From assembly GCA_964585295.1 (NCBI GenBank), contig CAZPCY010000003.1:66990-130989 (forward strand): 64,000 bases of DNA, in the 5' to 3' direction. Under the pieces are notes generated by a model. That model had not been told where the DNA came from. It saw only the letters and a program-made list of their open reading frames with translations, and made no database searches. Source of the DNA: an uncultured Candidatus Poseidoniales archaeon (lineage in GTDB: Archaea; Thermoplasmatota; Poseidoniia; Poseidoniales; Thalassarchaeaceae). Numbering within the stretch: the stretch's first letter is position 1; each line of letters begins with the position of its first letter. A program made the translations under genes and the position numbers. Positions 28,187 through 54,728 of this stretch are shown in pieces.

Positions 28187-31100
28187 TCACCTCATCCCTC
28201 CGCCGCGGCTCTTGCCGACCGGAGCCATACTCTGCGCTCCGGAGCCGCGTGGTGGAGCCGGCATCATAGGTGCGCCACGGCCCTTACCATGAGGTTGTGC
28301 GCGTGCTTCCGGTGGAGGTGAAGCTGGACCCGACCGTTGCCTCTGCGGCGTCATCATCCCCTCATACGAGGTCCGTGTGTTCTGCTTCATCTTCCGTTGC
28401 AGGCGGAGTTCGGATTCCTCCTTCGCGGCGCCGCGGCGCATCATCCCGACCACTAACAATCCCATGGTGATCAAGGAGACCAATCCGATGGCGGCGGGCA
28501 ATCCATACTCCAGCAAGACATCCGCCTCGATCGCGTCGGGATCGATTAACAGCATGGTCGATGACTCCACCGCCGCCGGCTCGTCTGAGCCTGCATCCCT
28601 AGCCGAGATGGTCGTGTCTAACTCACCGGGTTCCGCCGAGGTGACGCGTCCGGTGAAAATCACAGTCGAGGTAGCGCCTTCGGTGCCGGCAGCCCCGAGT
28701 TCCACAGTCTGCACGGAGATGGGTGCTATCACTCCCTTTGGCACGGTCCATTCCACGGTTATGGTGAGTGGCACATCACCCGGATTAGTAAGCGTGCAGG
28801 TGACCTCGAACTCGCCACTGTCCGAGATGTTCTCTGCTATCGAATCGGGGGAGCAAGTCATGGTAATCTCCGCTTGGTTCCGCTCAGAATCGTCAGGCCA
28901 CCGGTCTGGGTCGACTGCACCAGGGGCGGTATTGTCGCCGTAGCCATCGCCGTCAGCATCCGTCCACTGTGTGGGCTCGTTCGGGAAGGAGTCCTGCGAA
29001 TCGGCGTAACCATCGGAGTCAGAATCAGCGCAGCCGAGGACTTCCCCCTCCGTGCTACTTCCATGCTCATCCGGGCAATCATCTCCCATCGTTCCCAGCG
29101 GGTCGTCACCGAATCCATCGAAGTCGGAGTCGGAATGCTGTGTGGCGTCCATCGGGAGGAAGTCGCCGGCATCCGACCAGCCGTCAGCATCCGTGTCTAG
29201 ACAGCCAAGAACATCGGCACTGGAATTGCCCGCAGTACTCGGGCAGTAATCCGGTGAGAAGCCGTTCGGATTGTCTCCATAGCCGTCTCCATCGCTGTCG
29301 TTCCACTGCGAGGCGTCATCGTCGAACGCATCCGCATCGTTCGACCAACCATCACCATCACCATCGGCGCATCCGCGTTTGTCGTGGAAGCTCGTGCCGG
29401 GCGTAGATAGGCAGTCATCAGCGCTGTTGCCGGTCGTGTTATCCCCATACCCATCGGCGTCGCTGTCCATCCACTGGGTCTCATCACCAGGGAATGCATC
29501 AGCGCCATCGGCGACCGTCCAAGAGGCGGACGGGTCGCTCCTGCCATCGCCATCAGTGTCGGGACAGCCAATCCGATCGGCTGTCGAAGTTCCTGAATGA
29601 GCCGGACAGGCATCGGCTGAATCCCCAACACCATCGCCGTCTACATCACTAGAGTGACCAGGGTCATTCGGCAGCGCGTCATCCGAATCTCGCACACCGT
29701 CTCCATCCGAGTCCGGACAACCGAATGCACCGATGGTGGAATTGCCCGCTTCGGTCGGGCAGGAATCGGGTTGCGTGCCGGTCGGCGAGTCACCGTAGCC
29801 GTCGCCGTCCGTGTCGGCGCTCTGCGAGGCGTCGTTCGGGAAGTCATCGGAACCATCTCCCACCCCGTCCCCATCACCGTCCGTCGTCTCATTGGCGTCA
29901 TTCGGGAAGTCGTCGTTTGGATCTGTCACGCCATCGCCGTCCGAATCGTCAATGCATCCGTCGGCGTCCTGATCCCATCCGCTGGAGTTCTCCGTTGGAC
30001 AGGAGTCGATGTCGTTGCCGATGCCATCTCCGTCGCCATCGTCGATGCAGCCATCCTGATTCGCATCCCATCCGGTCGAGGAGATGGTAGGACAGGCATC
30101 CGAGTTGTCGCCTATCGAGTCGCCATCCGTGTCGGCCCATTCGGAGGAATCTGAGATGAAGGCGTCGTTGGCATCGCTCTGTCCATCGCCGTCGGAATCA
30201 ACGCACCCGAATCGGTCCAGGGTCGAATTCCCCACCGTCGTTGGGCAGGCGTCTCCTTGGGCACCGGCGGCATTGTCGCCGAATCCATCACCGTCCGCAT
30301 CCGCCCACTGTGTGGGCTCGTTCGGCAGTGCATCGGCGCCGTCGGAAGTAGTCCAGTTCGTGTCGGAATTCGATCGTCCGTCGCCATCTGAGTCGACGCA
30401 ACCTGAGCGGTCGACGCTTGAGTTACCCACTACCGATGGACAGTCATCTCCGTCCACACCGGTATCGTTGTCCCCAAATCCGTCGCCATCGCTGTCGGCG
30501 TGCTGGGTGCCTTCGTTCGGGAAGTGGTCCTGATCGTCGGCCCACCCATCACCATCTCCGTCGAGGCAGCCCAAGGTGCCGTTCTGGGTCGAAGTCCCAG
30601 ATATGGTCGGGCAGTCATCAGCATCGGTGCCGCTCGAATTATCTCCGTATCCGTCACCGTCGGTATCGTTCCATTGGCTGTCGTCGTTGGGCAGCACATC
30701 GTGGTCGTCAGCCCAGCCATCGGAGTCCGAGTCGGCGCATCCTAGGATGGGATGGGTGGAATCGCCTGTCACCGTCGGACATCCGTCGGGCGAATTGCCG
30801 GAAGAGTTGTCTCCAAATCCATCGCCATCCGAATCGATGTACTGGGAGGAATCGGTCGGGAATGCATCAGCGCCATCAGACACGGTCCAGCCGCCGTCGG
30901 CGTCGGACCAACCGTCATCGTCGCTGTCGATACAGCCGTTGCGATCCTCCGACGAGTTCCCCGCGGTGGAGCCGCATGAGTCGGCGCCGTCGGAGGTGCT
31001 CCAGACAGCATCCACATCCGACCAGCCATCGGAATCCGAGTCCGGACATCCTTGTCTGTCGATGGTCGATGTGCCGACCGTTGCGGTGCAATCGTCGGAA

Positions 31101-33577
31101 TCGCTGCCGGTCGGATTGTCGCCGAAGCCATCGAAGTCAGCGTCCGCCCATTGGGTCGCATCGTTAGCGAACGCGTCGGCGCCGTCGTTTACCGTCCATC
31201 CCGAGTCTGGATTTGAGCGACCATCGCCATCCGAGTCCGTGCAGCCGGCGCGATCGATGGTCGAGGTACCGGAGATGCTTGGACAATCATCCGCTCCATC
31301 GATGAATCCGTCGCCATCGGCATCGGCGCTAATGTTCGTCATCGCGAGGCTGCGCGACAAGGCGAGCGCGAAGTGCTGAGGGCCAACCGCCACAGAGGTG
31401 CCAACGACGTGTACCTCCCAAGTGCCGCTGGATGGATTGGAGAGGATCTCTCCCACGAGGTTGTCTCGGTCGTTTGAGACATTTGTCCAAGTGCCATCAG
31501 GTGCCTTCAGGTGGAGGTCGAGATCGTTGACTAGATGGTTGCTGACGGAAGGGGTCGATTCAGGATCGGTCCACGATAGCACCACACGGAGATCGGAAGT
31601 CCCGGAAGGAACAGTGAAGCGGAACGCTCGCTCCTCGTTCGTAGAGACGGTCTCACCTTCGATCCAACTGCCATTCATCATGGTCGACATGTTCACCCGA
31701 CCCCATCCCTCGTGGTCGTTGGGAGCGTCCTCTCCTGCGCCGTTGGTACTCGACGAATACTGTCCAGCCATGTCGCTCGCACCTGCGGTGAAAATCGCCT
31801 TTACTAGGGCCGATGAAGGGTCGGTGTGATTCTCGTTCTCGATCAGATGCTCCAGCAGTAGTGCGGTGGCCCCGGCTGTGAGTGGAGTGGCCATCGAGGT
31901 CCCTCCCATGTAGGTGTACGAGGAGTTGTAAGCGAGCCATCCGGTGTCGCTGGTCGATCGCGATTTGGTGGAGAGGATGAAGGTCCCAGGAGCTGAGACT
32001 TCAGGCTTCAGGCGCTGGTCATCGGTCGGGCCTCGGCTTGAGAAAGCCGCCATCCCTTCCGGATGGCCTGTGTTGTCATCGCTCCTGATTGGCTCAGCAT
32101 ATTCGGAACCCCACGACCCTGGGTAGTAGCAGCTGCCATCACCTTGGCAGAGGACCGTTCTGCCGTTCTCCGATGCACCTACCGTAAGCACGTTCTTGGC
32201 GGTCGCAGGAGCGCCCAAGGAATCCAGATCTATCTCGCCATCCTGATTCCCGTCAGCGCCTTCGTTGGCGGCGGCGAAGAGGACGGTCAGATTGCGGTGC
32301 ACCCTAGCGCCAATGTCAGCCTGCATCGAAGTCGATGTGTACTGGCCGGCGACATCACTGCCCCACGAATTCGTGTGGACGCGGCTGCCATTCGCCACCG
32401 CGTCGTCGTACATGTGGGAAAGATTGGATGGAAAGCCGATTAGGTAGGATTTACCATCCCGGTTGCAATAGATGTCGACGGCTTGGAAGACGAGGTGTGC
32501 TTCGGTCGCGGAGCCGATGATGCTGCCACCGGAATCAGTGCCGTCACCGAGGACCGAACCGGCGACGTGGGTTCCATGTCCATCGATATCGGATGCACCA
32601 TCGTTGGCGTTGCCTCCACAGTAGTTGTGGTTGCCTTGACTCATCGAATAGGAGACGATGCCTGTGATATGGTCGCGCAAGTCGGGGTGCATGTTGCTGT
32701 TGTTGACGCCGTTGTCCAGACCGGTGTCTGCCACGGTTACCGTGATGCCGCTTCCGTCCAATCCATTCCAAGACGAGTCGAGACCCTGCATGTTGCTGGT
32801 TGACTCTACCCAATCGACCTCCATCACCTCGCGGCCGACGTCGTTGAAAGTGCGCCGTTCGAACGACGGCTCGATGAACTCGACCTCATCGAGGGTCGAG
32901 AGGTGAGCGATTCCACGAGTCGTCGCATCTACGCTGATGAAGCGGTCATCGTGTGACAGGATACTGACCGAACCTAGTGGGGCACCGTACAAGTCTGGCG
33001 CTTCCTCGCCGGACAGAACCAAGGTGAAGACACCGCGGCCGCGCTCGTGCAGCCTCGCTTCGTACTCGCCAAGCAGAGCGGCGGCGGTCCACTCGTGCAT
33101 GCGATCGATCGGATCGAAGCGCGCCATCGCGATGACTCCGGAATCAGCGAGTTCAGTCGAGCGATGGCCCGAAAGCAAGCAGTGGAATGACTGCGGTGGA
33201 ATGAACGAACGACACTCGATGCCGACGGATTGGAGTTCTCCTTTCCACTCGGTGGGAACAGGGGCCTCATGCGCTAGGATCATCCAACCGTCGAGAGCGC
33301 CGTTCCCGAACGAGGAGCGCCAATCCCGCTGCTGCACGAGAATTGAATCGCGGTGTCGAAGATGAGCGACGACTGACCCCTCCTCCTTCTCACCCCAACC
33401 GTGCTCGGCATCGCCGATTGGCTCCACGCCGATGGCGCGCAGTGAATCAAGATCGATGTTCGGTTCAATCGTCGACCCAGAGCCATCTGAACCAGCAGCC
33501 AGCGCTGGCGCGAGAGGTTGGATCAGCATCAGGAGAGTGAGCGTCAGGCATCTGGCGGTCGTTGCGCGGGTGAACAT
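28187..33577 (-). CDS. secreted subtilisin-like serine peptidase (S8) with long array of thrombospondin type-3 Ca-binding repeats, C-terminal TM anchor and P/G/R-rich tail
   Basis: Signal peptide 'MFTRATTARCLTLTLLMLIQPLAPALAAG'. S8 catalytic-triad motifs 'VTVADTGLD', 'HGTHVAGSV' and 'GGTSMATPLTAGATALL'. More than 25 repeats of the form 'DSDGDGxxDxxDxFPND'. A hydrophobic helix near the C-terminus is followed by 'RRGAAKEE...' and a Pro/Gly/Arg-rich tail. Confidence 0.8.
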   Translation of the reverse strand: MFTRATTARCLTLTLLMLIQPLAPALAAGSDGSGSTIEPNIDLDSLRAIGVEPIGDAEHGWGEKEEGSVVAHLRHRDSILVQQRDWRSSFGNGALDGWMILAHEAPVPTEWKGELQSVGIECRSFIPPQSFHCLLSGHRSTELADSGVIAMARFDPIDRMHEWTAAALLGEYEARLHERGRGVFTLVLSGEEAPDLYGAPLGSVSILSHDDRFISVDATTRGIAHLSTLDEVEFIEPSFERRTFNDVGREVMEVDWVESTSNMQGLDSSWNGLDGSGITVTVADTGLDNGVNNSNMHPDLRDHITGIVSYSMSQGNHNYCGGNANDGASDIDGHGTHVAGSVLGDGTDSGGSIIGSATEAHLVFQAVDIYCNRDGKSYLIGFPSNLSHMYDDAVANGSRVHTNSWGSDVAGQYTSTSMQADIGARVHRNLTVLFAAANEGADGNQDGEIDLDSLGAPATAKNVLTVGASENGRTVLCQGDGSCYYPGSWGSEYAEPIRSDDNTGHPEGMAAFSSRGPTDDQRLKPEVSAPGTFILSTKSRSTSDTGWLAYNSSYTYMGGTSMATPLTAGATALLLEHLIENENHTDPSSALVKAIFTAGASDMAGQYSSSTNGAGEDAPNDHEGWGRVNMSTMMNGSWIEGETVSTNEERAFRFTVPSGTSDLRVVLSWTDPESTPSVSNHLVNDLDLHLKAPDGTWTNVSNDRDNLVGEILSNPSSGTWEVHVVGTSVAVGPQHFALALSRSLAMTNISADADGDGFIDGADDCPSISGTSTIDRAGCTDSDGDGRSNPDSGWTVNDGADAFANDATQWADADFDGFGDNPTGSDSDDCTATVGTSTIDRQGCPDSDSDGWSDVDAVWSTSDGADSCGSTAGNSSEDRNGCIDSDDDGWSDADGGWTVSDGADAFPTDSSQYIDSDGDGFGDNSSGNSPDGCPTVTGDSTHPILGCADSDSDGWADDHDVLPNDDSQWNDTDGDGYGDNSSGTDADDCPTISGTSTQNGTLGCLDGDGDGWADDQDHFPNEGTQHADSDGDGFGDNDTGVDGDDCPSVVGNSSVDRSGCVDSDGDGRSNSDTNWTTSDGADALPNEPTQWADADGDGFGDNAAGAQGDACPTTVGNSTLDRFGCVDSDGDGQSDANDAFISDSSEWADTDGDSIGDNSDACPTISSTGWDANQDGCIDDGDGDGIGNDIDSCPTENSSGWDQDADGCIDDSDGDGVTDPNDDFPNDANETTDGDGDGVGDGSDDFPNDASQSADTDGDGYGDSPTGTQPDSCPTEAGNSTIGAFGCPDSDGDGVRDSDDALPNDPGHSSDVDGDGVGDSADACPAHSGTSTADRIGCPDTDGDGRSDPSASWTVADGADAFPGDETQWMDSDADGYGDNTTGNSADDCLSTPGTSFHDKRGCADGDGDGWSNDADAFDDDASQWNDSDGDGYGDNPNGFSPDYCPSTAGNSSADVLGCLDTDADGWSDAGDFLPMDATQHSDSDFDGFGDDPLGTMGDDCPDEHGSSTEGEVLGCADSDSDGYADSQDSFPNEPTQWTDADGDGYGDNTAPGAVDPDRWPDDSERNQAEITMTCSPDSIAENISDSGEFEVTCTLTNPGDVPLTITVEWTVPKGVIAPISVQTVELGAAGTEGATSTVIFTGRVTSAEPGELDTTISARDAGSDEPAAVESSTMLLIDPDAIEADVLLEYGLPAAIGLVSLITMGLLVVGMMRRGAAKEESELRLQRKMKQNTRTSYEGMMTPQRQRSGPASPPPEARAQPHGKGRGAPMMPAPPRGSGAQSMAPVGKSRGGGMR

Positions 33578-37272: not shown

Positions 37273-37280
37273 ATACATTT
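37273..37280 (+). promoter_or_regulatory. TATA-like element (TATACATT) ~38 bp upstream of ATG 37315, followed by GGAGGG
   Basis: Seen in sequence. The spacing is compatible with a short 5' UTR carrying an SD-like element. Confidence 0.3.
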
Positions 37281-37314
37281 GCAGCGAAGGCGACCGAGCG
37301 AGGAGGGATCGACC

Positions 37315-38997
37315 ATGATGATCGACTCAGTGCTACTCCACCACCTGCACACGGCGAAATTGCAGGACCTTCGGGACTTGGCGACCAAGCACGAAATCAG
37401 CCGTCAGGGGAATCTAGAGATTCTGCGCGCACGACTAATCTCCAACCTCGTGCTGACTGGGGTGGATCTCTCTTGGGAGGGAATCCAAGAGATGTCGAAC
37501 GCAGACCTTGGAGAGGTGCTCAAGGTCCTCGGAGTGAAGAGCAGCGGGGCCCAGAAGATGAGGCGGAGAAGACTGTGGCTGCACCTGAACCACGATCCGA
37601 AGAAGCTCACCGTCGATTCACTAGGAGAAATGACTCGTGACGATCTGCACGAGATGTGCATCCGTTTGGAACTCGCCCGCTCTGGGAACAAGAATCAACT
37701 CCTAGTCAGGGTGGCAGGTGTGCTCACCGCACAAGAGGGTGGTTGGGGCCGAATCAAGAAGAGTCTGAAGCGGGCGGCAGCGCCGGTGGTCGAAGCGAAC
37801 ATCGAAGCAGCAGCAGTGACCCATGATGATGTAGAAGCCGCTGAAGCCTACGTAGAGGCAGTCGAAGAACACGTGGCATCCAATGAACCGGAAGCAATTG
37901 CCGAGGAAGAACGCGTGGTGGAATCGATTGAGATTCCCGAGGAGGAACCTGAAGAGGCAGACTCGTCTCCGACTCCTACCACTCTCGACGAGGGAGCTGG
38001 TACCGCATTGTTGACATTGGAGTCTCGGAGAGCAGAGTTACACGCTCTGATTAGGGATTTCCTGCTGCTCTCCGATATCCCTTCTCCGGGAGATATTACA
38101 GCATTCGTAGAGGACCTAGGATCGCACGGCTTCGGAGTCCAGCACGAGAGTGTCCGGGAAGCTGTTCTAGCAGATATCGAGCGGATGGCGGCCCGCAAGG
38201 CGGATGAGAGGGACGCTCAGGCCGTAATTCCCGGAACATGGCGCGAACGGCGAGCGTTGCGCCGGCTGGAGGAGGTGCGAGCCGGCCTGCTCGATTCATT
38301 GGAGGCGATTCTCGCCGATACGGAGGGAGACCTAGCACTCGCCCGCACCCGATTTGAACAGGCGGCCGCGAAAGCTGGCCTTGATCTAGACCTACCAGCA
38401 ATCAGCGGCCGCATCCACGGCTTGTTCGATCTTCAGGTCTCGCTCCGTGAGGTCGAAGCGGATGCCGACCCGGTAGCGCATCGCCGCGAGAGAGCCATCC
38501 GGGTGCTCTTCAGGCAGGTCGACGCACTGGATGCGTCGGCACGACGGACCCTAGAGCGTATCGAGCAGCAGATCGAATCGATTGAACGGGTAATCGAGAC
38601 CGTGATTCGCCGTAACGAAGGGCGTTTCGATTCTCTCGAGCAGGCGCTCTTCATCCGCTTCCTTGAACGGAGGGGATGGGATGCAAACCATCCAGAGGTG
38701 CGACCTCGACTCATCGCTGCCGCTGGAATTCTGGCGACCCACATGGGTTACCTTGAACCCGATGAGGCCCCGACCCTTCCGAGCCAATTGGCCCTCGATC
38801 CCGACCGAGTTGGCGATGTGGTCGAGAACCTGCGAGACGTCCTCAGCGAATTCGGTCGCGCGCCTACCGAGGAAGAGGCGCTGAAGACGCCGGAAGAGCG
38901 CGCGGCGGATGCTGAGCAGCCTAGCGTTGATAGAGCGAGGCGCGGGCTCGACGCGGCCGACTCCGTGCTGTCCCGCTTGCAGAGGATGACAGAGTAA
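37315..38997 (+). CDS. protein with three N-terminal SAP-like (helix-extended-helix) DNA-binding motifs followed by an acidic coiled-coil region
   Basis: 'LQDLRDLATKHEISRQGNLEILRARLISNL', 'LGEVLKVLGVKSSGAQKMRRRRLWLHL' and 'LHEMCIRLELARSGNKNQLLVRVAGVL' each fit the SAP pattern (L..L.V.ELR..L...GL...G.K..LI.RL). The remaining ~400 aa are E/A/R-rich helical. ATG-ATG at 37315 is preferred over the ORF-track TTG start at 37279. Confidence 0.45.
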   Translation: MMIDSVLLHHLHTAKLQDLRDLATKHEISRQGNLEILRARLISNLVLTGVDLSWEGIQEMSNADLGEVLKVLGVKSSGAQKMRRRRLWLHLNHDPKKLTVDSLGEMTRDDLHEMCIRLELARSGNKNQLLVRVAGVLTAQEGGWGRIKKSLKRAAAPVVEANIEAAAVTHDDVEAAEAYVEAVEEHVASNEPEAIAEEERVVESIEIPEEEPEEADSSPTPTTLDEGAGTALLTLESRRAELHALIRDFLLLSDIPSPGDITAFVEDLGSHGFGVQHESVREAVLADIERMAARKADERDAQAVIPGTWRERRALRRLEEVRAGLLDSLEAILADTEGDLALARTRFEQAAAKAGLDLDLPAISGRIHGLFDLQVSLREVEADADPVAHRRERAIRVLFRQVDALDASARRTLERIEQQIESIERVIETVIRRNEGRFDSLEQALFIRFLERRGWDANHPEVRPRLIAAAGILATHMGYLEPDEAPTLPSQLALDPDRVGDVVENLRDVLSEFGRAPTEEEALKTPEERAADAEQPSVDRARRGLDAADSVLSRLQRMTE

Positions 38998-39001
38998 CCG
39001 G

Positions 39002-40249
39002 TCATTCCATGGTGGCGAAGTATCCTTGGATGACCTTCGTGACCTGCTCGATCTCACGGACGTCTCTGCGAGCTAAATCCGTGAGGATTTGTTCCCTCTG
39101 TCGGACATACGCCTCAAAGTCGGCCGGCCTGCATCCCTTCGCTTCACAGATAATCTCTCGGAGCTTGCTCGGCACGCCAGTCTCGACAATCTTGCCCTCC
39201 GAGGCGTCGAATCTCCAAATTGGGTTGAGCCTTGGGGTATCCCCCTCCATTCCTGCTATCTCGGCCACTTCGGTGATGCGGCGGATGTTCTTGCCGCCAA
39301 CATTCAGCCTCGCCTGCATGATAATCAGGTCAAGGGCGCTCAGCATGATCGAAGGCACGCTCATCGGAGGGTTCACCAGTCGCTTCACAGTCTCCGACGC
39401 CGTGTTGGCGTGAAGGCTTCCGAAGGAGCCGTCGTGACCGGTGTTCATCGCCATCAGCAGAGTCCCAGCCTCAGGGCCACGCACCTCACCGACGATGACG
39501 CGGTCCGGGCGCATGCGAAGGCTCGACTTGAGGCAGTTGTCCATCCCAATCTCGGTGGTTCCGTCAGGCCTCTCCGCCCTAGTCTCCATCCGCAGCCAGT
39601 GATCATGGTAGATCTGCAACTCAGCGGTATCCTCCACCGACAGAACTCTGTCGGACCATGGGACGAACATGCCAAGACAGTTCAGGGTGGTAGTCTTACC
39701 GGAACCGGTTCCGCCGGCGATGACGAAGTTCGCCGGCTTGGCACCGAGGCCGTCCACCCAACACCAGAACATCGCGGCGAGTCTAGGTGAGACCGTTCCC
39801 CATTTGATGAGGTCTACCATCGTAATCGGGTCTTCCTTGAACTTCCTGATGGTCAGGGTGGGTCCGTCCGGGGATACCGGAGGGATGGTGCCATTCACAC
39901 GCGAACCATCGGGGAGACGGCCGTCGAATATTGGGACCATGCCAGGACCATCGCCTAGTGGGACAGCGGTGAAGGATGCAATGTTCTTGGAGATCTGCAT
40001 CCCCTCATCGTCCTCGATCCAAATGTTGGTCCTGCACATGCCATGTTTGCGGTGGGCAATCTTCACGCACTGAGTCCCACCATTGTACATCACCTCTTCA
40101 AGAGAGTCGTCCTCAAGCAATGCTGAGAGTGCTCCATACTCGTTGGGAGGGATATCATCCCCAAACTCGTAGAAGGGGGTGGGGTGTCCTGGCTCTCTGT
40201 AGATTGTGACTGCTCCGTATTGATCGATTATCTCTGCCATTCCATTCAC
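39002..40249 (-). CDS. type II/IV secretion-system ATPase (TadA/CpaF/FlaI/VirB11 family)
   Basis: Walker A 'IAGGTGSGKTTTLNCL', Asp box, Walker B 'RVIVGEVRGPEA' and His box 'MAMNTGHDGSFGSLHANTASE'. 415 aa. GTG start, with an in-frame ATG 9 nt downstream. Confidence 0.85.
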   Translation of the reverse strand: MNGMAEIIDQYGAVTIYREPGHPTPFYEFGDDIPPNEYGALSALLEDDSLEEVMYNGGTQCVKIAHRKHGMCRTNIWIEDDEGMQISKNIASFTAVPLGDGPGMVPIFDGRLPDGSRVNGTIPPVSPDGPTLTIRKFKEDPITMVDLIKWGTVSPRLAAMFWCWVDGLGAKPANFVIAGGTGSGKTTTLNCLGMFVPWSDRVLSVEDTAELQIYHDHWLRMETRAERPDGTTEIGMDNCLKSSLRMRPDRVIVGEVRGPEAGTLLMAMNTGHDGSFGSLHANTASETVKRLVNPPMSVPSIMLSALDLIIMQARLNVGGKNIRRITEVAEIAGMEGDTPRLNPIWRFDASEGKIVETGVPSKLREIICEAKGCRPADFEAYVRQREQILTDLARRDVREIEQVTKVIQGYFATME

Positions 40250-40250
40250 C

Positions 40251-40988
40251 TCATCCCAGACTCGAACCGAGCCCCATGTAGACGCCGAGGAAGATTGCGG
40301 TCGAAGCTGCCATCCATGCCGGCATAATCCACAGGTAGGCGCGCATGCGGCCGAGCATTCGGCCGCAAATCGCGACGGTTATCCCGGATGCGGCCGCGCA
40401 AAACAACTCGACCGAATCGAGAACCGCATCGACTGGGAAGCCCTTCTTAGGACCAGCGAAGACGCCGACGATGAAGCCAGCGATCGCCGGCAGCATCAGC
40501 CCCATCAACACGAGCATCGTGAAAGCCTGACCGAACACCTTACTCTCACGTTCGTTCATCAACTGGTTGAGACGTTCGTATTCCATGCTCATTCGGAAGG
40601 ATACATCCTTCATAGGCGCGTTCTGCTCCATCGAAGTCGATAGGAGATTGACGATCCTCTGAGCCATCATCGATCTGGTTTCCAGAGCGAACTTGGCGAG
40701 CGCTGCATCGAAGGAGGCGGCCTCGCTCCTCTCAATCGCGGCGCTGAGCAATTTGCCGGTGATGTCGGTGCGCGACTTCGCGACTTCGGATAGCGCCTGT
40801 TCGACACCTAGTCCGGCACCGATAGCGCCGGAGATCGACTCCAGAACCTCGGGCATTGCGGTCTCAATCGCACGGCGGCGGCGGCGCTCAAAGAATTGCG
40901 GGACGGCGCCACCGGAACAGGCAATCGCGAGCGGCATCAACAGCAGCAGAGTGCCGTTGTCATTCAGTGTCTCTAGATATCCCCACAT
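40251..40988 (-). CDS. T2SSF-domain membrane protein (TadC/FlaJ-like, C-terminal half)
   Basis: N-terminal TM helix, a cytoplasmic T2SSF-like segment ('MPEVLESISGAIGAGLGVEQALSEVAK') and C-terminal TM helices. Confidence 0.55.
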   Translation of the reverse strand: MWGYLETLNDNGTLLLLMPLAIACSGGAVPQFFERRRRRAIETAMPEVLESISGAIGAGLGVEQALSEVAKSRTDITGKLLSAAIERSEAASFDAALAKFALETRSMMAQRIVNLLSTSMEQNAPMKDVSFRMSMEYERLNQLMNERESKVFGQAFTMLVLMGLMLPAIAGFIVGVFAGPKKGFPVDAVLDSVELFCAAASGITVAICGRMLGRMRAYLWIMPAWMAASTAIFLGVYMGLGSSLG

Positions 40989-40997
40989 GCCAACACC

Positions 40998-41582
40998 TCA
41001 GATGCCAGGATCCTGCGTATGCGCCTTCATCCCCACTAGACACATCAGAAGCAGTGAGAAGAACAATCCCCCGGCGCTTACAAGGTTCATCGTGCCAGCA
41101 TCCGGCACTGAGACCCCAATCGCTGACATCGCCGTCGGATCGAAGAGATAGGGTAGAACTCCCATGAGTGGTAGAACGATAGGTGCGAGCATGCCAACCG
41201 TCAGCAAAGTCTCCGGCATCCCCGAGAGGGTCTCGATGTACTTCTCCAAGCGCTGATTCCGCTCCTCCTCCTCACGCTCCGCTTGTCGGCGCAGCGCTTC
41301 GATCAAATCGGTGTTAGATGTGACATTGGAGCGCATGGTCTGCACGAGTCGCTTGTATCCGTTCGACTTCGTCTTCGTGGCGGCCATCTGCAATTGGTCC
41401 TCCAGCTTCTTGCCCGCTCGAACCTCGTCGATAATCATCGAGAAGTCTTCACTGATCGCTCCGTAACCGCCGCGAGCAATGTTGATGATGACCGATTCCA
41501 ATCCTATTCCTGCGCCGAGCAGCACGTCCATCGCGCGCAATGCATAGAGGAGATCCTTGTCCTCCTTTGCGATCGCCCCCAT
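40998..41582 (-). CDS. T2SSF-domain membrane protein (TadB/FlaJ-like, N-terminal half)
   Basis: 'LLYALRAMDVLLGAGIGLESVIINIA...' T2SSF domain followed by TM helices. It ends at a TGA that is in frame with, and 9 nt upstream of, the next ORF's ATG. Confidence 0.55.
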   Translation of the reverse strand: MGAIAKEDKDLLYALRAMDVLLGAGIGLESVIINIARGGYGAISEDFSMIIDEVRAGKKLEDQLQMAATKTKSNGYKRLVQTMRSNVTSNTDLIEALRRQAEREEEERNQRLEKYIETLSGMPETLLTVGMLAPIVLPLMGVLPYLFDPTAMSAIGVSVPDAGTMNLVSAGGLFFSLLLMCLVGMKAHTQDPGI

Positions 41583-41598: not shown

Positions 41599-41943
41599 TC
41601 AGATTATGTCCTCGATGAGCACCATCTTGAACTCCCCGGTGCCCGCGTCGTACTCGATCTCGGAAATCGCGGCCTTCATCTCACGGTCGAGGAACGGATC
41701 GATGAAATGAGGCTGGCCCGCGCGGAAGATGGATTCCAACTTCTTGTAGCCAATCTCGTCGACGTTCAGGCGAATCGTGTAGACGGCGGACTCGGAGCCT
41801 TCGTCCTCGAGATCGTCGCCTTCGCCGCCGCGCTCGACGGTCCTCTGTAGACGTCGCTTGATCGATATGTGGACATGGCAGCCATCCAACTGCACCCATT
41901 CGCCGTCGCCTGACCGGATGTAGCAGGTCAGTTCGCGGACCAT
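41599..41943 (-). CDS. hypothetical soluble protein (114 aa), first gene of the Tad-like cluster
   Basis: No TM helix, signal peptide or recognisable motif; it is not pilin-like. Confidence 0.3.
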   Translation of the reverse strand: MVRELTCYIRSGDGEWVQLDGCHVHISIKRRLQRTVERGGEGDDLEDEGSESAVYTIRLNVDEIGYKKLESIFRAGQPHFIDPFLDREMKAAISEIEYDAGTGEFKMVLIEDII

Positions 41944-42004: not shown

Positions 42005-42997
42005 TCAAGGTGTCAATTGGAACCAGCCGAAGCTCGGTTCCATAATCTCTGCCCGTTCGTCCCGAAGATCGTCTATCGCATCCTCGAAGACCTGCAACGG
42101 GATGCCTTGCGAGGTGCAAGCGTGTCGCAGGGCGTCGTAGTGCACTCCTTCACCTTGGTCACCGGCCCGAATCGCCCCTAGTATGATGTCATCTATATCG
42201 GCTGAGGCGGGCGGTTCAGAGAGTTCTGGTTCGCTCTCTGATGGTGCAGAATCGTAGCCTGCGAGACCGCTCTCTTGGTCATTGCCTTCATCCTCATCGA
42301 CGCTCGGAGCGCTGACGTCTTCCGCTCGGCCGGATGCCATCGCCAAGGCGTGCAAGACGCCGACTCGGTACGACTCGGCGTCGAAGGGCCCGTAGTGGCC
42401 ACGAGCCGAGATCAAGCCGTCGAGGAGATCTTCGGGAACTCCCGCCGCCCGCATCGAATCCCTGTCTGAATCGGCATCGGATGCACGCTCCTGAGCGTCG
42501 ATCCTGCGGAGGGTTGCATCGGCTGCGTCTGCCAACCAGCATGCATATCGCGACCTGTCGATGACTCTCATTGACTCGGTACGGACGCTGGTGTATACCG
42601 AGCCCTCGTCATTGGTCCAGTGTCTGGCACGCCCCATCATTAGCATCAGGAAGCGATCGCCTCGCTCGAATCTGGCGAGCAGTTCCTCGGCATCGCCGTG
42701 GAGTTCCGGCTGGAAGTGGCCGATGTCGAACATGTGCACTCCGGTCGGATCTCGGAGTTGGCCTCGATAGGTAGGACCGCTTTCGCCGTCTCGCCTCTCC
42801 ATCCGATCGATTACGCCGGCGACCATCATCCGAGACACCCTCGCTCCGAGTTTCGTGACGATGAAAGTAGGGTCGTACTGCCCCTCCCCCCCCTCCGGCA
42901 GGGTCGCCTGCGCGTACTCAAGTGCGAAGAGGTGGATGGAAGGCTGCCGGCGACGGCTTTGAGCCTCGCTGACGGTCACAGAACCACCTCCCAGCAC
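42005..42997 (-). CDS. RPA-associated protein / RPA32-like (OB fold plus C-terminal winged helix)
   Basis: N-terminal OB-fold-like 'YDPTFIVTKLGARVSRMMVAGVIDRMERRDGESGPTYRGQLRDPTGVHMFDIGHF'. C-terminal 'GVHYDALRHACTSQGIPLQVFEDAIDDLRDERAEIMEP' resembles the RPA32 wH domain. It lies immediately downstream of rpa, overlapping by 22 nt, as in euryarchaeal rpa-rpap operons. Confidence 0.5.
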   Translation of the reverse strand: MLGGGSVTVSEAQSRRRQPSIHLFALEYAQATLPEGGEGQYDPTFIVTKLGARVSRMMVAGVIDRMERRDGESGPTYRGQLRDPTGVHMFDIGHFQPELHGDAEELLARFERGDRFLMLMMGRARHWTNDEGSVYTSVRTESMRVIDRSRYACWLADAADATLRRIDAQERASDADSDRDSMRAAGVPEDLLDGLISARGHYGPFDAESYRVGVLHALAMASGRAEDVSAPSVDEDEGNDQESGLAGYDSAPSESEPELSEPPASADIDDIILGAIRAGDQGEGVHYDALRHACTSQGIPLQVFEDAIDDLRDERAEIMEPSFGWFQLTP

Positions 42998-44652
42998 TCC
43001 ATCACTGCAGCCGCTCTCGCTTCGCCGTCCATCTCCTTCCGCTCGATTCTATCAGCCAGCAGCATCACACCTCGATCATCGACTATGGCGCGCCCCCTAA
43101 TATCGACCGATGTTCCGAACAAATCAGCTACTAGAGCCTCGTGGAAGGCGATGGGGCCACCATCATCGATGCGCGCCTTCACCTCGTCGAAACTCTCACC
43201 GAGATGACGCTCAGACGGCTCTCTTCCGAGCACCACGGATGCGGTGGACAAGCCGTCGTCGATGACCATACGCAATCGCAGATCCTCGTTGCCCTCGACG
43301 TGCCCGTGCTCGTGACAGGAGCCATCACGGAGGACCCGACGGCATTCCACACAACGGCGAACGATTCCACTGTCGTCCCGGACCAAAACGATGGTACCGC
43401 TGGTTCGGATGCCGCTGCGACTGCCACCAGACTCCAAATCGGATAGAGAGAGGTCGAACACGTGAGTCTCCGGGTCTATCTCATCCCACGGAGCGTCGGA
43501 GAGCACCTCAATTTGATCCTCTCGATCGACCGTAAGATCGGGAGTTCCCTGCCAAGCCCGCACGCGGACTCCGGAGAGACTCAAGAACGAGCCTGAATCG
43601 ATTCCCGCATCGCACCATACCGTCATCCGGCAGCGGCCGGTGGGGTCGATCACCTCGCCGCTCCAGAGCGAACGATCGTTGCCCTCGTCATCTTGGAAGG
43701 TCCGTTGTGTCAGTGATTCCACTTGGACGGTGACATGCACTTCCCTCATGCCGTCGCGGAGACCCGAGATCGTAGCCTGGGAGACCGACTCCAGAGATTC
43801 GGCGTCCGGGAACGCATTGTCGATGTAGACCTCGACCTTCGTGCGGTCGCCGATGTTAATCTCCGGTGTTTCCCTGAATCGCCGGATGCTGGCACCCTCT
43901 ATCCGTACCAGTTGCCCTTCTCCGTGCTCAAATGGACCCCAACAGGTGAAGCCGATCGAACCGGACTGGTCGGCGAGGCGTCCTCGAACGATGTCAATCG
44001 AGCCAGTGCCATCTCGCCGATGGATCACATCGGGCTTCGCGGAGAGGACGCGAGCGACGACCGAGACCATTCCCTGCATGTCGTGCACCGCTTCGATGCT
44101 GACCGGCTCTTCGGGGGCGATGACGGGCGCCGATCCCTCACGCAGGGTGGTGACGCGGCTGCCGCGATTCACATTGATTGAACGCTTGCCCTGCCACTCG
44201 TTGACCGAGACGCCTTCTAGGCGGACAATCGAGCCGGGCGTGAGTCGCGATGAGTGGTCGCCCCAATCTTTGAAGTCCCATCTCGTCCTCTCGCCGCCCT
44301 CGGTCCAAGGGCGATCCTCGATCCAACCGAAGGATATCTGACGCTCTTCGCCTCGCACCATCTGGACCCTCGGATTGCAGGTTATCACCTCCACCTCGAT
44401 GGTGACGTTGCGGTCGTCGGCTCCGAGGTCATCGAATCGTTCCACCTTCCTCTCTGTGGGAGCGCTCTGGCTAGGCATCTCCGGCTCGCTCGCTCCGGCG
44501 CTGAACTTCTTGGTGACGGAACGAATGGCGTCCTCAGGTGGAATGAGGAACTCCTCTCGATATCGGATGAACTCCGCCCTAATCTCCTCCTTTGAGGCAT
44601 CTGGGCACGCCTCGGCCACAATCTCAACTTGGTGCTCCAATCCATCTTCCAT
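42976..44652 (-). CDS. rpa: replication protein A (multi-OB-fold ssDNA-binding protein with Cys3His zinc finger)
   Basis: Several OB-fold-sized blocks, plus 'RRCVECRRVLRDGSCHEHGH' (C-x2-C-x9-C-x2-H) as in archaeal/eukaryotic RPA70. The ORF track starts at 44838. The ATG at 44652 (MEDGLEHQ...) is preceded by GGAGGGA and removes a Pro-rich leader; which start is used is uncertain. Confidence 0.7.
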   Translation of the reverse strand: MEDGLEHQVEIVAEACPDASKEEIRAEFIRYREEFLIPPEDAIRSVTKKFSAGASEPEMPSQSAPTERKVERFDDLGADDRNVTIEVEVITCNPRVQMVRGEERQISFGWIEDRPWTEGGERTRWDFKDWGDHSSRLTPGSIVRLEGVSVNEWQGKRSINVNRGSRVTTLREGSAPVIAPEEPVSIEAVHDMQGMVSVVARVLSAKPDVIHRRDGTGSIDIVRGRLADQSGSIGFTCWGPFEHGEGQLVRIEGASIRRFRETPEINIGDRTKVEVYIDNAFPDAESLESVSQATISGLRDGMREVHVTVQVESLTQRTFQDDEGNDRSLWSGEVIDPTGRCRMTVWCDAGIDSGSFLSLSGVRVRAWQGTPDLTVDREDQIEVLSDAPWDEIDPETHVFDLSLSDLESGGSRSGIRTSGTIVLVRDDSGIVRRCVECRRVLRDGSCHEHGHVEGNEDLRLRMVIDDGLSTASVVLGREPSERHLGESFDEVKARIDDGGPIAFHEALVADLFGTSVDIRGRAIVDDRGVMLLADRIERKEMDGEARAAAVMECWEVVL

Positions 44653-44905
44653 CCGCGTTCTCCCTCCGGGTATTGAGGAGGCGTCAAGAGTGGTAGTCAT
44701 CCCGACATGCGCGGGCCGAGCGATCGCCTCTGTGAGGCGTTCCGGGGGACGGCTCGGCGTGCGGCTGGGGAAGACTTGGCACTCCATCACCTCCGGCTTT
44801 GGAGCAGCCTGTATCGACGGTTCTTGAACAATCGGCATCGATTCCCCTCAATGTGGCAATCCCCGGCGGCGGAGAGGTCATCATCCCGTAGCGAGTCGCC
44901 GCACC

Positions 44906-51158: not shown

Positions 51159-54100
51159 GTGCCGAAAGGACAGCACGCGACTGCGCTCGTCGCCCTATTG
51201 GTTCTCGCCCCCCTACTTGCTGCAACTGGCAGCACGCTGGCGAGCCCTGTCGACAAGAGCGGCGATGAGAGCTATCCTGGGACGAGCGGCGAACCGATAC
51301 CAACGAGCTACTACCCTATCGACGGACACGGAGTCAACGCAGCCAATCCAGAGTGGAACGCACAGAACTCCGATCTCGGGCGTAAGGTGCCATCGATGGC
51401 GGAGAACGGGTCGGGCCTAGCCTTCCCCGACCTTCCTTCGCCGAGAACAATCTCAAATGCCGTCTGCAGCCAACAGCAAGGACTGGTTCCCGACGAAACG
51501 GGCCTCTCCGACTACAACTGGCTCTGGGGACAGTTCATCACCCACGAAGTCGATTTCACATTGACGCAGAACGGCAGGGTGAGCGGCATCCCGGAGACCG
51601 CGAACATTCCGGTCGAGGCGCATGACCCGCACTTCGGAGCGCCGGCGGGGGGCGCCGCCTTGATCCCATTCTTCCGATCGCTGTACAACTCCTCGACCGG
51701 AGAGGACAGCAGTGATCCGCGGCAGCATCCAAACTCGGTCACCGGGTGGATAGACGGCTCGGTAATCTATGGTTCCAAGGACTCCGTCGCAAGTTGGCTT
51801 CGGACCGGCGAGAGTGGACGACTGAAGGTGAGCGAGGATGCCTACGGTCATCTGCTCCCAATCGCGGCGGATGATGACGACACTGCGCCTGGGATGAGTT
51901 TCGTCGGCTTCAGTGCCGATGTTCGTTACATCGCCGGTGATTCGCGCGCCAACGAGCACGCCTCCTTGATGGCTATCCATGTCCTGTTCGTGCGCGAGCA
52001 CAATAGACTGGCCGAGGAGATTCAAGAGCGCAATCCGGATTGGAACGACGAGCAGGTGTTCCAGCGTACTAGGAAGATCGTCACGGCGCTGATTCAGGTG
52101 GTTAACTACGAGGAGTTCCTTCCCTCTCTCGGCATCACCCTTCCGAACTACACCGGTTACGACGAAGCCATAGATCCGACGGTGACGAACTCGTTCGCCA
52201 CGGTAGCCTTCCGGATGGGACACAGCCAGATCGGCCCGATGGTCATGCGGTTGGAGGAGAACAGGACTCCGATCCCACAGGGCCATGTCCTGATGAAGGA
52301 CGCCTTCTGGAAGACCTCGGTCGTCACCGAGGGGGGTGGAATCGGTCCGCTGCTGCGCGGCTTGGCGTTCACCACCCAGGAAGCGAACGACATCTACTTC
52401 CACGACGATCTGCGAAACACCCTGTTTGGGATGCCGGGGGCTGGCGGTGCGGACCTATGCGCAATCGACATTCAGCGAGGACGCGACCACGGAGTCGCCG
52501 ACTACAACAGCCTGAGGGAGGTGATTGGCCTGCCAAAGGTCGGCAACTGGAGCGATGTGACCAGCGATGCCGAAGTAGAGTCCCGCCTCTCCTCTGTCTA
52601 CTCGGACTTGGATCGCGTGGACGGGCTCATGGGTATGCTGGCTGAGGATCATCTGAACGGCTCCGTCCTAGGACCGACCATGCACGCTCTGATCAAAGAT
52701 CAGTTCCTCAGACTCCGTGATGGAGACCCACTCTTCTACCTGAACGATCCGGAACTCACAGACATCGCCACGAACCTGACCGGCACCACGCTCGCCGAGA
52801 TCATTCTGCGAAACACTGAGATCGAGGCAATCCAGTGCAATGTCTTCTTCGCCGAGACGAACGGCTCCCGATTCGATTGCAACAACGCGAATCTTGAGAC
52901 GCCCCCATCCTATGCCGTCGATGGATCGACTGATTCGAATCCGGTCGTGGCGGAGTTTGGATTCACGGACGTCACCGCTTCTAGCGGGCTCTATGAGGTT
53001 GACTCTGGCCCGCTTACGGACTGGGCTGCGTATGGACCAAGCATCGCTTGGGGCGATTGCGACGGAGATCGTGATCAGGACGTCTTCATCGGCGCTCGCT
53101 TCGACCATCTGGGATGGGAGAGCGGAGAGACGACCACCGGCCTCAACCACCTGATGATCAATGACGGTGATTCCACCTTCAGCGACGGCACCACTGCCAG
53201 CGGCATCGCGGCGGATAACTCGACGACTCTGGGGGCTACCTGGGCCGACTACGACGATGACGGCGACCTTGACCTCTATCTGTCGAACTACGGAGTCGCT
53301 GACTTCGGTGACGATTACGCGACGAGCGGCGCTGCGAACCAACTCTACGAGAATGCCGGAGATTGCACTTTCACCGATGTGACAGAGTCGACCGGGGTTG
53401 GAAACCACGGCCATTCATCGGGCTCCGTCTGGGTAGACTTCGACCACGATGGCGACCTCGACCTCTACTCGTTGAACATCGGCATGATCGATGAGAACAA
53501 CACCGTGATTCGCTCCGCGACCAACATCCTCTATCGCAACCAACTGACTGAATCAGGGAGCCCGACCTTCATCGACTGGACGGATGAGGCTGGTGGACTC
53601 TACGGTCAACCGGAGCGAGCGAACAGCGACAACGACATCAAATATGGAGAACTGGAATCGATTGCACCGACCGCACCCCCCTCCCCTTCCGCGACTGCGG
53701 TCGTGAAGGAGTACCTAGGTCAGGAGGGGAAGGGAACCGGGGTCTCGTGGGCGGCTATTTGGTTCGACTACGACGGAGATGGTTGGGAGGACCTCTATGT
53801 CGCAAGCGACTTTGGCATCTCCCCCCTCTACAGGAATGATCGCGATGGCACCTTCACGTTGGTGACGTTTGAGGCTGACATGAAGGAGCCGGGGACGGGA
53901 ATGGGGGTGCATGCGGCAGATGTCGACGGGGATGGAGATCTCGATTTATGCCAATCCAACTTCGGTCCGAACTTCCTTTGGCGCAATGACGGAGATGGTA
54001 CATTCACTCAGGATGGAGTAAACTCCGGAATCCACGAGAATGTGCTAGTGAACTGGGACTGTCACTTCTACGACATCGACCTCGATCGCGATGCCGATCT

Positions 54101-54728
54101 ATGGTTCGGAGTCGGCAGAATCAATCCCTTCACGAGTTTCAACAATAATTCCCTCTACCTCAACGATGGGAATGGCCAATTCACCGACGTCATAGAGCAG
54201 GTTGGACTCGCGGGACAGCATAAGACGATGGGGGCCGCTTGGGCGGACTTCGATGGGGATGGAGATCTCGACCTTCTGATGGGCAATTCCAATGGCCCCC
54301 TGAATCTGTTCCGCAATGACGCGGTCGAGAGCGGCTCCGGCGACTGGCTGAAGGTCGATCTTGAAGGACTCGGAATCGCCGGCGGCGGCTCGAATAGGAA
54401 TGGTGTCGGTGCGATGGTGACCGTCCGGATGGCGGATGGTGACACGATGAAACAGATGGCATACGCCGGCTCCGGCTTCCTCGGCACATCCGAACCTCAC
54501 GTCCACTTCGGATTGGGCAACGACTCTCGAATCGATTACGTCGCCGTCCTATGGTCGACCGGTCATCTGCAGATAATCGAGGATGTGAGCGCCAACACGG
54601 TGCTGACCGTGAACGAGGAGTTGCCCCCCCAACGAAACAATGCTGTGACGGGGTTCCTTCTCGGCATCCTGCTGCTGTCACTGGTGGCTCTCCTCTGGCC
54701 TGCCATCAAGGCGGCTAGAGCCTCCTAA
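51159..54728 (+). CDS. secreted, C-terminally membrane-anchored animal-heme-peroxidase (peroxidase-cyclooxygenase superfamily) domain fused to FG-GAP/VCBS-type Ca-binding beta-propeller repeats
   Basis: Signal peptide 'ATALVALLVLAPLLAATGS'. Distal-side 'WLWGQFITHEVDF', 'IAGDSRANEHASL', proximal His in 'MAIHVLFVREHNRLAEEI', and 'CAIDIQRGRDHGVADYNSLRE', which is near-identical to the peroxidasin/LPO motif. Residues ~600-1150 carry more than 7 repeats such as 'WADYDDDGDLDLYLSNYG', 'WVDFDHDGDLDLYSLN', 'WFDYDGDGWEDLYVASDFG', 'ADVDGDGDLDLCQSNFG' and 'WADFDGDGDLDLLMGNSNG'. The C-terminal TM is 'VTGFLLGILLLSLVALLWPAI'. Confidence 0.8.
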   Translation: MPKGQHATALVALLVLAPLLAATGSTLASPVDKSGDESYPGTSGEPIPTSYYPIDGHGVNAANPEWNAQNSDLGRKVPSMAENGSGLAFPDLPSPRTISNAVCSQQQGLVPDETGLSDYNWLWGQFITHEVDFTLTQNGRVSGIPETANIPVEAHDPHFGAPAGGAALIPFFRSLYNSSTGEDSSDPRQHPNSVTGWIDGSVIYGSKDSVASWLRTGESGRLKVSEDAYGHLLPIAADDDDTAPGMSFVGFSADVRYIAGDSRANEHASLMAIHVLFVREHNRLAEEIQERNPDWNDEQVFQRTRKIVTALIQVVNYEEFLPSLGITLPNYTGYDEAIDPTVTNSFATVAFRMGHSQIGPMVMRLEENRTPIPQGHVLMKDAFWKTSVVTEGGGIGPLLRGLAFTTQEANDIYFHDDLRNTLFGMPGAGGADLCAIDIQRGRDHGVADYNSLREVIGLPKVGNWSDVTSDAEVESRLSSVYSDLDRVDGLMGMLAEDHLNGSVLGPTMHALIKDQFLRLRDGDPLFYLNDPELTDIATNLTGTTLAEIILRNTEIEAIQCNVFFAETNGSRFDCNNANLETPPSYAVDGSTDSNPVVAEFGFTDVTASSGLYEVDSGPLTDWAAYGPSIAWGDCDGDRDQDVFIGARFDHLGWESGETTTGLNHLMINDGDSTFSDGTTASGIAADNSTTLGATWADYDDDGDLDLYLSNYGVADFGDDYATSGAANQLYENAGDCTFTDVTESTGVGNHGHSSGSVWVDFDHDGDLDLYSLNIGMIDENNTVIRSATNILYRNQLTESGSPTFIDWTDEAGGLYGQPERANSDNDIKYGELESIAPTAPPSPSATAVVKEYLGQEGKGTGVSWAAIWFDYDGDGWEDLYVASDFGISPLYRNDRDGTFTLVTFEADMKEPGTGMGVHAADVDGDGDLDLCQSNFGPNFLWRNDGDGTFTQDGVNSGIHENVLVNWDCHFYDIDLDRDADLWFGVGRINPFTSFNNNSLYLNDGNGQFTDVIEQVGLAGQHKTMGAAWADFDGDGDLDLLMGNSNGPLNLFRNDAVESGSGDWLKVDLEGLGIAGGGSNRNGVGAMVTVRMADGDTMKQMAYAGSGFLGTSEPHVHFGLGNDSRIDYVAVLWSTGHLQIIEDVSANTVLTVNEELPPQRNNAVTGFLLGILLLSLVALLWPAIKAARAS

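Follow-up and report, generated by a model that had tools for sequence, protein, structure and literature searches.

The 64-kb stretch of DNA analysed here (hereafter the window) covers positions 66,990 to 130,989 of contig CAZPCY010000003.1, from an uncultured Candidatus Poseidoniales archaeon. At issue is a TGA codon on its minus strand that lies between two open reading frames (ORFs), each of which encodes a membrane protein with a T2SSF domain. The host belongs to Marine Group II (MGII), a group that ranks with the most abundant archaea in surface ocean waters; to our knowledge, none of its members has been cultured. The window is ordinary MGII chromosome, containing an A-type ATP synthase operon as well as SMC/ScpB, HMG-CoA reductase and riboflavin genes, at a GC content of ~59%.

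Gene layout and domains of the module

Gene 1 (40998 to 41582, minus strand, coordinates that include its TGA stop) encodes a 194-amino-acid (aa) single-T2SSF-domain platform protein of the N-domain type. The stop codon (40998 to 41000, minus strand) directly follows ...KAHTQDPGI and is succeeded by an intergenic spacer of 9 nucleotides (nt), ggtgttggc (40989 to 40997, minus strand), as read from the sequence. Gene 2 (40251 to 40988, minus strand) then starts with ATG-TGG-GGA (MWGY...) and encodes a 245-aa single-T2SSF-domain platform protein that we assign to the C-domain type. The sequence and the ORF list confirmed what the original prediction had said of this arrangement, namely that a 194-aa ORF (41582 to 40998) ends in DPGI-TGA and that, 9 nt on and in the same frame, the ATG at 40988 opens a 245-aa ORF. 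The stop-to-ATG distance is a multiple of 3, gene 1 and gene 2 share a frame, and the whole adds up to 443 codons (194+1+3+245). By chance alone a shared frame is unremarkable, with a prior of 1 in 3. The comparison of 443 aa with the size of a single FlaJ/PilC protein, made in the same prediction, was correct in its sum; the likeness in size is loose, the two-domain relatives that we found being 490-706 aa long.

The TGA forms the first three bases of the heptamer TGAGGTG (41000 to 40994). Within it, the Shine-Dalgarno (SD)-like hexamer GAGGTG (40994 to 40999, minus strand) overlaps the gene 1 stop and ends 5 nt ahead of the gene 2 ATG. The same heptamer is repeated at the junction of gene 2 with the following ATPase gene (40253 to 40247, minus strand), where the gene 2 stop overlaps the SD-like site of the ATPase gene. 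This third gene (39002 to 40240, minus strand) encodes a 412-aa secretion/assembly ATPase of the T2SSE/VirB11 superfamily that is FlaI/TadA-like. Gene callers run on identical contigs place its start at an ATG 10 nt past the gene 2 stop, which gives 412 aa; a mechanical ORF list placed it at a GTG at 40249. The first gene of the putative operon (41599 to 41943, minus strand) encodes a 114-aa soluble protein of unknown function, for which a tail-tube/Hcp-like fold was predicted. Along the minus strand, a 620-aa RPA-like OB-fold protein comes first, then a 330-aa protein and, after a gap of 61 nt, the 114-aa protein, gene 1, gene 2 and the ATPase; this order was retained in every orthologous contig of sufficient length.

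Against PF00482 (T2SSF), the gene 1 product scored 58.8 bits (E 6.8e-16), and the gene 2 product scored a marginal 25.7 bits (E 1.2e-5; the Pfam gathering cut-off is 25.2 bits). Most gene 2 homologues carried precomputed PF00482 matches. A Kyte-Doolittle hydropathy scan placed two transmembrane (TM) segments in the gene 1 product, both C-terminal (124-147 and 164-187), and three in the gene 2 product, one N-terminal (12-33) followed by 151-180 and 189-213; in each product, TM helices come after the cytoplasmic domain. The earlier statement that each half carries one T2SSF domain plus TM helices therefore held. When the gene 1 family was aligned with gene 2 by hhalign, the two matched with a probability of 87% (E 3.7e-6), and sequence comparison thus indicates that the two products are paralogous halves with a single T2SSF domain each. 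The ATPase matched PF00437 (E 5.6e-39); its NCBIfam scores of 239.9 bits for FlaI and 200.9 bits for the TadA family were both below cut-off and do not discriminate. Its adjacency to the platform genes was kept in all loci long enough to tell. The domain scores, the polytopic TM helices and the adjoining T2SSE/VirB11-type ATPase are those of the T2SSF platform family.

We also asked which domain of a two-domain platform each half resembles. With the gene 1 profile, the N-terminal domain was the best-scoring part in all five of the two-domain relatives, and a weak match to GspF likewise fell in its N-domain. The gene 2 product matched the C-terminal half of the ArlJ/FlaJ model (266-378 of 465) and of the UpsF model (283-381 of 484), in both cases below cut-off, and its profile preferred the C-domain in 3 of the 5 two-domain relatives. 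Taken together, these alignments suggest that the gene pair is colinear with a single-chain platform protein, gene 1 corresponding to its N-terminal domain and gene 2, on moderate evidence, to its C-terminal domain.

Two separate genes at orthologous loci

Gene-1 relatives in a 5.8-billion-protein index were 188-194 aa long and gene-2 relatives 243-253 aa, and none was fused. A profile search of 1.84 billion cluster representatives returned 514 relatives. In that search, the 12 matches at E<=1e-30, and nearly all of those down to E~1e-17, were single-domain proteins (183-197 aa when full-length) or fragments, and two-domain proteins (490-706 aa) turned up only from E~1e-13. Moreover, 17 members of the gene-1 family, down to 26% identity, had a common end point, K..[DE]PG[VIL], right after the last TM helix. 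On the other side of the junction, the gene 2 N-terminus was conserved as M.W..E..ND with its own conserved ATG. The sole length outlier among the homologues, P0008 (261 aa), was discounted because all genes on its long-read contig are fragmented. That contig is locus L013 (ERZ28548066 chinaman_3 contig_9371_pilon), in which the entire orthologous region is broken into short ORFs in the manner of frameshift noise.

The ratio of nonsynonymous to synonymous substitution rates (dN/dS) was next calculated against the closest orthologue. Gene 1 had a ratio of 0.077 and gene 2 one of 0.123 at saturated dS (> 1), values that indicate strong purifying selection on both genes; 50 and 53 residues were invariant in the two family alignments. 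Given the common terminus, the fixed lengths of the homologues and the low dN/dS, we conclude that both ORFs are functional and that the boundary between them is ancient. To speak of a TGA that splits a gene, as the original prediction did, is accordingly misleading for the present-day genome, which has two old genes here.

A scan of one genome per species yielded 41 loci, all of MGII type. Most were named Poseidoniales, Thalassarchaeaceae or Poseidoniaceae, and the closest (81% identity) was from Thalassarchaeaceae. The remainder bore the generic names of metagenome-assembled genomes (MAGs), namely Euryarchaeota, Methanobacteriota or Thermoplasmatota archaeon, with a single Salinimicrobium among them (L042). 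This last locus (CAXRAI010000016.1) sits on a 166-kb contig in the MAG of a Salinimicrobium sp., a flavobacterium; it is of Poseidoniaceae type, has the junction TGA-ggtgttcag-ATG, and is probably a mis-binned archaeal contig. A metagenome scan with a narrower family alignment contributed four loci.

A stop was found at every locus that had the junction on its contig. From all fetched loci, 33 informative distinct junction sequences were extracted. Just over half (17/33) were in frame, all with the form TGA + 9 nt + ATG, and no in-frame length except 9 nt occurred; this 9-nt state was present in both Poseidoniales families. The other 16 were out of frame, with a spacer of 4 nt (TGAnnnnATG) in eight, a start codon that overlaps (GTG) or follows after 2 nt (TTG) in two, 16 nt in two, and 8, 10, 11 or 14 nt in one each. 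A second stop in the gene-1 frame was seen in L011 and L012. The stop itself was TGA in most loci, TAG in L019, and TAA in L061 and L062, two more distant loci with the same synteny in which the genes are separated by 2 nt (L061) or overlap by 1 nt as TAATG (L062). Orthologue comparison thus revealed two separate genes throughout, with many spacers out of frame, and it is this outcome that the original prediction had named as the mark of an ordinary split.

The SD-like motif was then followed across the same junctions. Among the distinct junctions with a spacer of >=8 nt, 22 of 23 had GGTG 5-6 nt ahead of the gene-2 ATG. At the longer spacers, GGTG kept its distance from the ATG and not from the stop (for example TGAggagataGGTGaaaatATG, TGAgaGGTGaggatATG and TAGGTGattctATG). 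In the 9-nt class, bases 1-4 were GGTG in 16/17 and bases 5-9 were free. If they were translated, the 9-nt spacers would read GDS, GGR, GEI, GET, GVG, GVQ, GEG, GES, GDQ, GDL, GVK or GFK, in which only the G forced by GGTG is conserved as an amino acid. Because GGTG tracks the ATG while bases 5-9 vary, the spacer behaves like a ribosome-binding site and not like a translated linker. From these comparisons, the shared frame appears to be a by-product of the preferred spacing (GGTG + 5 nt), without a function of its own. That SD sequences pair with the 3' end of 16S rRNA is textbook knowledge, and our SD reading rests on it together with comparative conservation. Analogous short junctions between gene 2 and the ATPase gene were found in orthologues, e.g. 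TGAGGGATACAAATG, TAAGGTGAAAAAATG and TGAGTCATG.

Two sub-lineages (L031-L034 and L050-L053; L011, L048 and L049) had given up the 9-nt spacer with its SD motif and had no visible SD motif. In one of them the junction was 4-nt (TGAnnnnATG), and in the other gene 2 began at a GTG that overlaps or at a TTG 2 nt on. Their junction sequences suggest a switch to pure termination-reinitiation coupling. As a whole, the loci provide a natural series of junctions for the Tad/Epd 'fission' design, with overlaps and spacers of 2, 4, 8-11, 14 and 16 nt and with an SD motif that tracks the start codon, and we take this series to point to tight co-expression of the platform halves.

Comparison with known platforms and rival explanations

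According to Denise et al. 2019 (PLoS Biol; PMC6668835), Tad and Epd-like platforms are encoded by two contiguous genes, with one T2SSF domain each, followed by the ATPase gene. In the same study, this two-gene platform was derived from an ancient gene fission, and TadC was found to be N-domain-like and TadB C-domain-like. On that basis, gene 1 would be TadC-like and gene 2 TadB-like. 'Two TadC components' were also reported in euryarchaeal clades 1 and 2 by Makarova et al. 2016 (PMC4858521), who noted pairs of TadC-like genes at many euryarchaeal loci and described archaeal ATPase/TadC modules with pilins encoded in trans. Two contiguous single-T2SSF genes, the organisational feature of Tad and Epd systems, were found here across 41 species-level genomes and in the more distant loci.

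As in the bacterial Tad (type IVc) system with its TadB and TadC, adjacent homologous single-T2SSF genes whose products have TM helices stand here beside the gene for a TadA-type ATPase, and JGI annotated the orthologues as 'pilus assembly protein TadC'. The present locus differs from the Tad system in its archaeal host and in that the platform genes precede the ATPase gene. Gene 1 is also unusually short (194 aa, compared with 270-400 aa for most distant single-domain matches) and lacks an N-terminal TM segment, and no secretin, TadZ, Flp pilin or TadV peptidase was found in the 64 kb. The Epd-like (EppA-dependent) pili of methanogens share with it the archaeal host and the two contiguous single-T2SSF genes followed by the main ATPase gene. 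Unlike them, the present locus has no FlaH-like secondary ATPase gene after the ATPase gene and no genes for pilins or an EppA-like peptidase nearby, whereas it has a gene for the 114-aa protein (tail-tube-like by prediction) ahead of the platform genes and RPA-type genes in synteny. Among the scanned ORFs of the window, no KaiC, CbiA or ParA-type match was obtained that would represent a secondary ATPase, and such a gene could be elsewhere in the genome. The next gene past the ATPase gene encodes a 572-aa protein on the opposite strand and has no domain of this kind. The window also gave no Peptidase_A24 match and, with a crude class-III signal-peptide regular expression, no convincing pilin ORF; genes for pilins and their peptidase may be located in trans.

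The single-chain platforms ArlJ/FlaJ, UpsF and PilC/GspF belong to the same T2SSF fold family, and gene 1 and gene 2 are colinear with their domains. However, each of them is a single chain, of 490-706 aa in the relatives that we found, whereas here there are two polypeptides with a conserved stop between them, and the ArlJ equivalog model scored 22.8 bits against a cut-off of 400. Profile searches of both platform families against PDB sequences gave nothing useful, and PHROGs had no match for the platform genes. The junction itself resembles known translationally coupled operon junctions in which a stop overlaps or abuts an SD site, with stop, GGTG, 5-6 nt and ATG at two successive junctions and conservation of this pattern in orthologues. 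It differs in that some orthologues are 4-nt or overlapping with no visible SD motif, and coupling is here predicted from sequence. The junction type is not new; judged by gene organisation, the Poseidoniales locus is a new member of the Tad/Epd-type two-gene platforms and may be expected to work like such a split platform, and membership in the Epd-like clade is not claimed. A limited literature search found no paper describing this locus.

We consider it highly probable that the TGA at 41000 to 40998 is a genuine stop, that it ends the first gene of an adjacent, translationally coupled pair, and that this pair encodes, as two halves with one T2SSF domain each, the inner-membrane platform for a machine of the type IV filament kind. 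This agrees with one of the four alternatives that the original prediction had left unranked, a Tad-like two-gene arrangement with a very short spacer, which the orthologous junctions, the common C-terminus and the evidence of selection all favour; the other three were not supported. The mechanism might be as follows. One operon transcript would carry all four genes, from that of the 114-aa protein through gene 1 and gene 2 to that of the ATPase. A ribosome terminating at the UGA would be placed on the overlapping GAGGUG SD-like site, and re-initiation at the AUG 9 nt downstream would couple the synthesis of both halves. Present in near-equal amounts, the halves could then pair as a pseudo-symmetric heterodimer, which would imitate a two-domain platform and on which the hexameric ATPase would dock.

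Several observations weigh against this interpretation. Window-wide, TGAGGTG was not enriched (12 observed vs 8.8 expected), and counts of GGTG, GAGG and AGGT by offset before ATGs displayed only coding-periodicity noise. The clade with 4-nt or overlapping junctions and no SD motif in the spacer indicates that the SD is not obligatory. The gene 2 profile preferred the N-domain in 2 of the 5 two-domain relatives, which leaves its C-domain assignment at moderate strength. No pilin, prepilin peptidase or TadZ/FlaH-type partner was found in the 64 kb. Finally, we infer co-transcription, coupling and 1:1 assembly from sequence, as we do the nature of the filament or substrate.

The shared frame also invites the explanation of programmed or leaky UGA readthrough, in which, in the 9-nt lineages, some ribosomes would produce a fused 443-aa two-domain FlaJ-like platform beside the separate halves; such a product would contain AHTQDPGI-X-GVGMWGYLETLNDNGTLLLLMPLAIACSGGAVPQFFER. 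TGA is generally the leakiest stop codon, every in-frame case uses it, and both the window and 17/33 distinct orthologous junctions keep the two genes in one frame, the 9-nt state occurring in both Poseidoniales families. Against this, 16/33 junctions are out of frame, second in-frame stops occur (L011, L012), and relatives have TAG (L019) or TAA (L061, L062) in place of TGA. The in-frame cases are always 9 nt and never 6, 12 or 15, which argues for a constraint on SD spacing and not on frame, and at the amino-acid level conservation of the three spacer codons goes no further than the G that GGTG forces. Also, the gene 1 C-terminus is kept as a terminus down to 26% identity. A 100-nt RNA fold around the site had a z of +0.91 (160 of 200 shuffled sequences folded equally well or better), and in the 64-kb window Rfam (at gathering thresholds) found only a tRNA and ARAGORN only a tRNA-Phe. 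We therefore regard readthrough as very improbable, and the same counts, together with an RNA structure no better than chance, led us to set aside the earlier suggestion of readthrough or selenocysteine recoding. The original prediction had itself noted that no selenocysteine insertion sequence (SECIS)-like element or selenoprotein machinery was visible, and Rfam and folding agree in finding nothing at the site; for the machinery, this statement covers one window.

The in-frame junction might instead be a scar of fission, that is, a 9-nt state preserved from an ancient stop inside a two-domain ancestral gene, an explanation that is compatible with the coupled gene pair. The genes are colinear with N- and C-domains, the in-frame state is the commonest and present in both families, and an ancient fission has been reported (Denise et al. 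2019; PMC6668835). However, that fission is older than the transfer of Tad to Bacteria (PMC6668835), yet dS already exceeds 1 between close relatives. Spacer length, moreover, shifts freely within the order, in the distant L061 and L062 the genes lie 2 nt apart or overlap, and what is conserved is GGTG alone, for which SD function accounts. We give this explanation a very small probability.

Two further explanations were found to be practically negligible. The locus would be a pseudogene if a nonsense mutation had recently arisen in a single FlaJ/PilC gene, or if that gene were in a phase-variable off state; the in-frame arrangement alone speaks for this. Contrary to this idea, which the original prediction had raised, the stop is universal in the orthologues (33/33 junctions) and in distant relatives down to 26% identity, dN/dS is ~0.1 (0.077 and 0.123), and the ATG and N-terminus of gene 2 are themselves conserved. 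By eye, and with no repeat-finding tool applied, no repeat tract was visible at the site. A sequencing or assembly error, likewise raised before, has nothing counted in its favour. The exact 194-aa protein and an identical 70-nt junction were recovered in five contigs that had been assembled independently, with different samples and pipelines behind them (ENA ERZ23498581, ERZ23498633 and ERZ23498946; JGI 3300007515; Logan SRR8062319), which excludes an assembly error, and the orthologues share the stop. The case matters mainly as a negative result. A TGA in frame between two half-size domains has the look of a pseudogene or of recoding, yet here it marks a normal boundary between genes, and such ORFs should be neither merged nor flagged by annotation pipelines.

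The 114-aa protein and neighbouring genes

The gene for the 114-aa protein was conserved with the module in all loci, and its product had no family match in Pfam, NCBIfam or PHROGs searches. It has the invariant motif RRLQRTVxRGGEGDDLxDEGxESAVY. A model of moderate confidence predicted a phage tail-tube/Hcp-like fold, a similarity at fold level, and the motif falls in a low-confidence loop of that model, at the place where tube proteins have the lumen hairpin. Two longer gene-1 relatives, P0030 and P0032, were considered as fusions with the 114-aa protein and rejected; their N-terminal extensions consist of TM segments and Gly-rich linkers.

Taken as a whole, the module, which comprises the 114-aa protein, both platform halves and a short FlaI/TadA-like ATPase, might be an undescribed derivative of the type IV filament machinery rather than a conventional adhesive pilus. 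This idea is based on the predicted tail-tube-like fold, on the lack of genes for pilins, a peptidase or a secondary ATPase nearby, and on a position beside the RPA genes that is fixed throughout Poseidoniales. It could, for example, move a non-pilin substrate or DNA, with the 114-aa beta-sandwich protein as a ring or tube on the platform. We think this unlikely; if it were true, the in-frame junction would still be an ordinary coupling site. The output of the module and its conserved 114-aa partner may be of interest to students of archaeal surface structures.

Directly upstream of the module (42005-44838, minus strand) lie the genes for the RPA-like OB-fold/Zn-finger protein (620 aa) and, overlapping it, the 330-aa protein, which had no Pfam match and which we presume may be RPA-associated. 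This linkage was seen in L001-L012, L061 and L062, even where gene 1 was only 44-47% identical, and it may be either functional or frozen synteny. On the other side, a gene for a 572-aa acidic protein with weak SAP-domain matches (37279-38997, plus strand) is convergent with the ATPase gene. A counterpart of 558-638 aa was present in most orthologous loci and absent from L006 and L007.

Elsewhere in the window, a 1796-aa subtilase-family protein (28187-33577, minus strand) is followed by a TerB-like gene. In a 1189-aa protein (51159-54728, plus strand), a domain of the animal haem peroxidase type (E 6.8e-135) occurs together with FG-GAP repeats and an ASPIC/UnbV domain, an architecture that is unusual for an archaeon.

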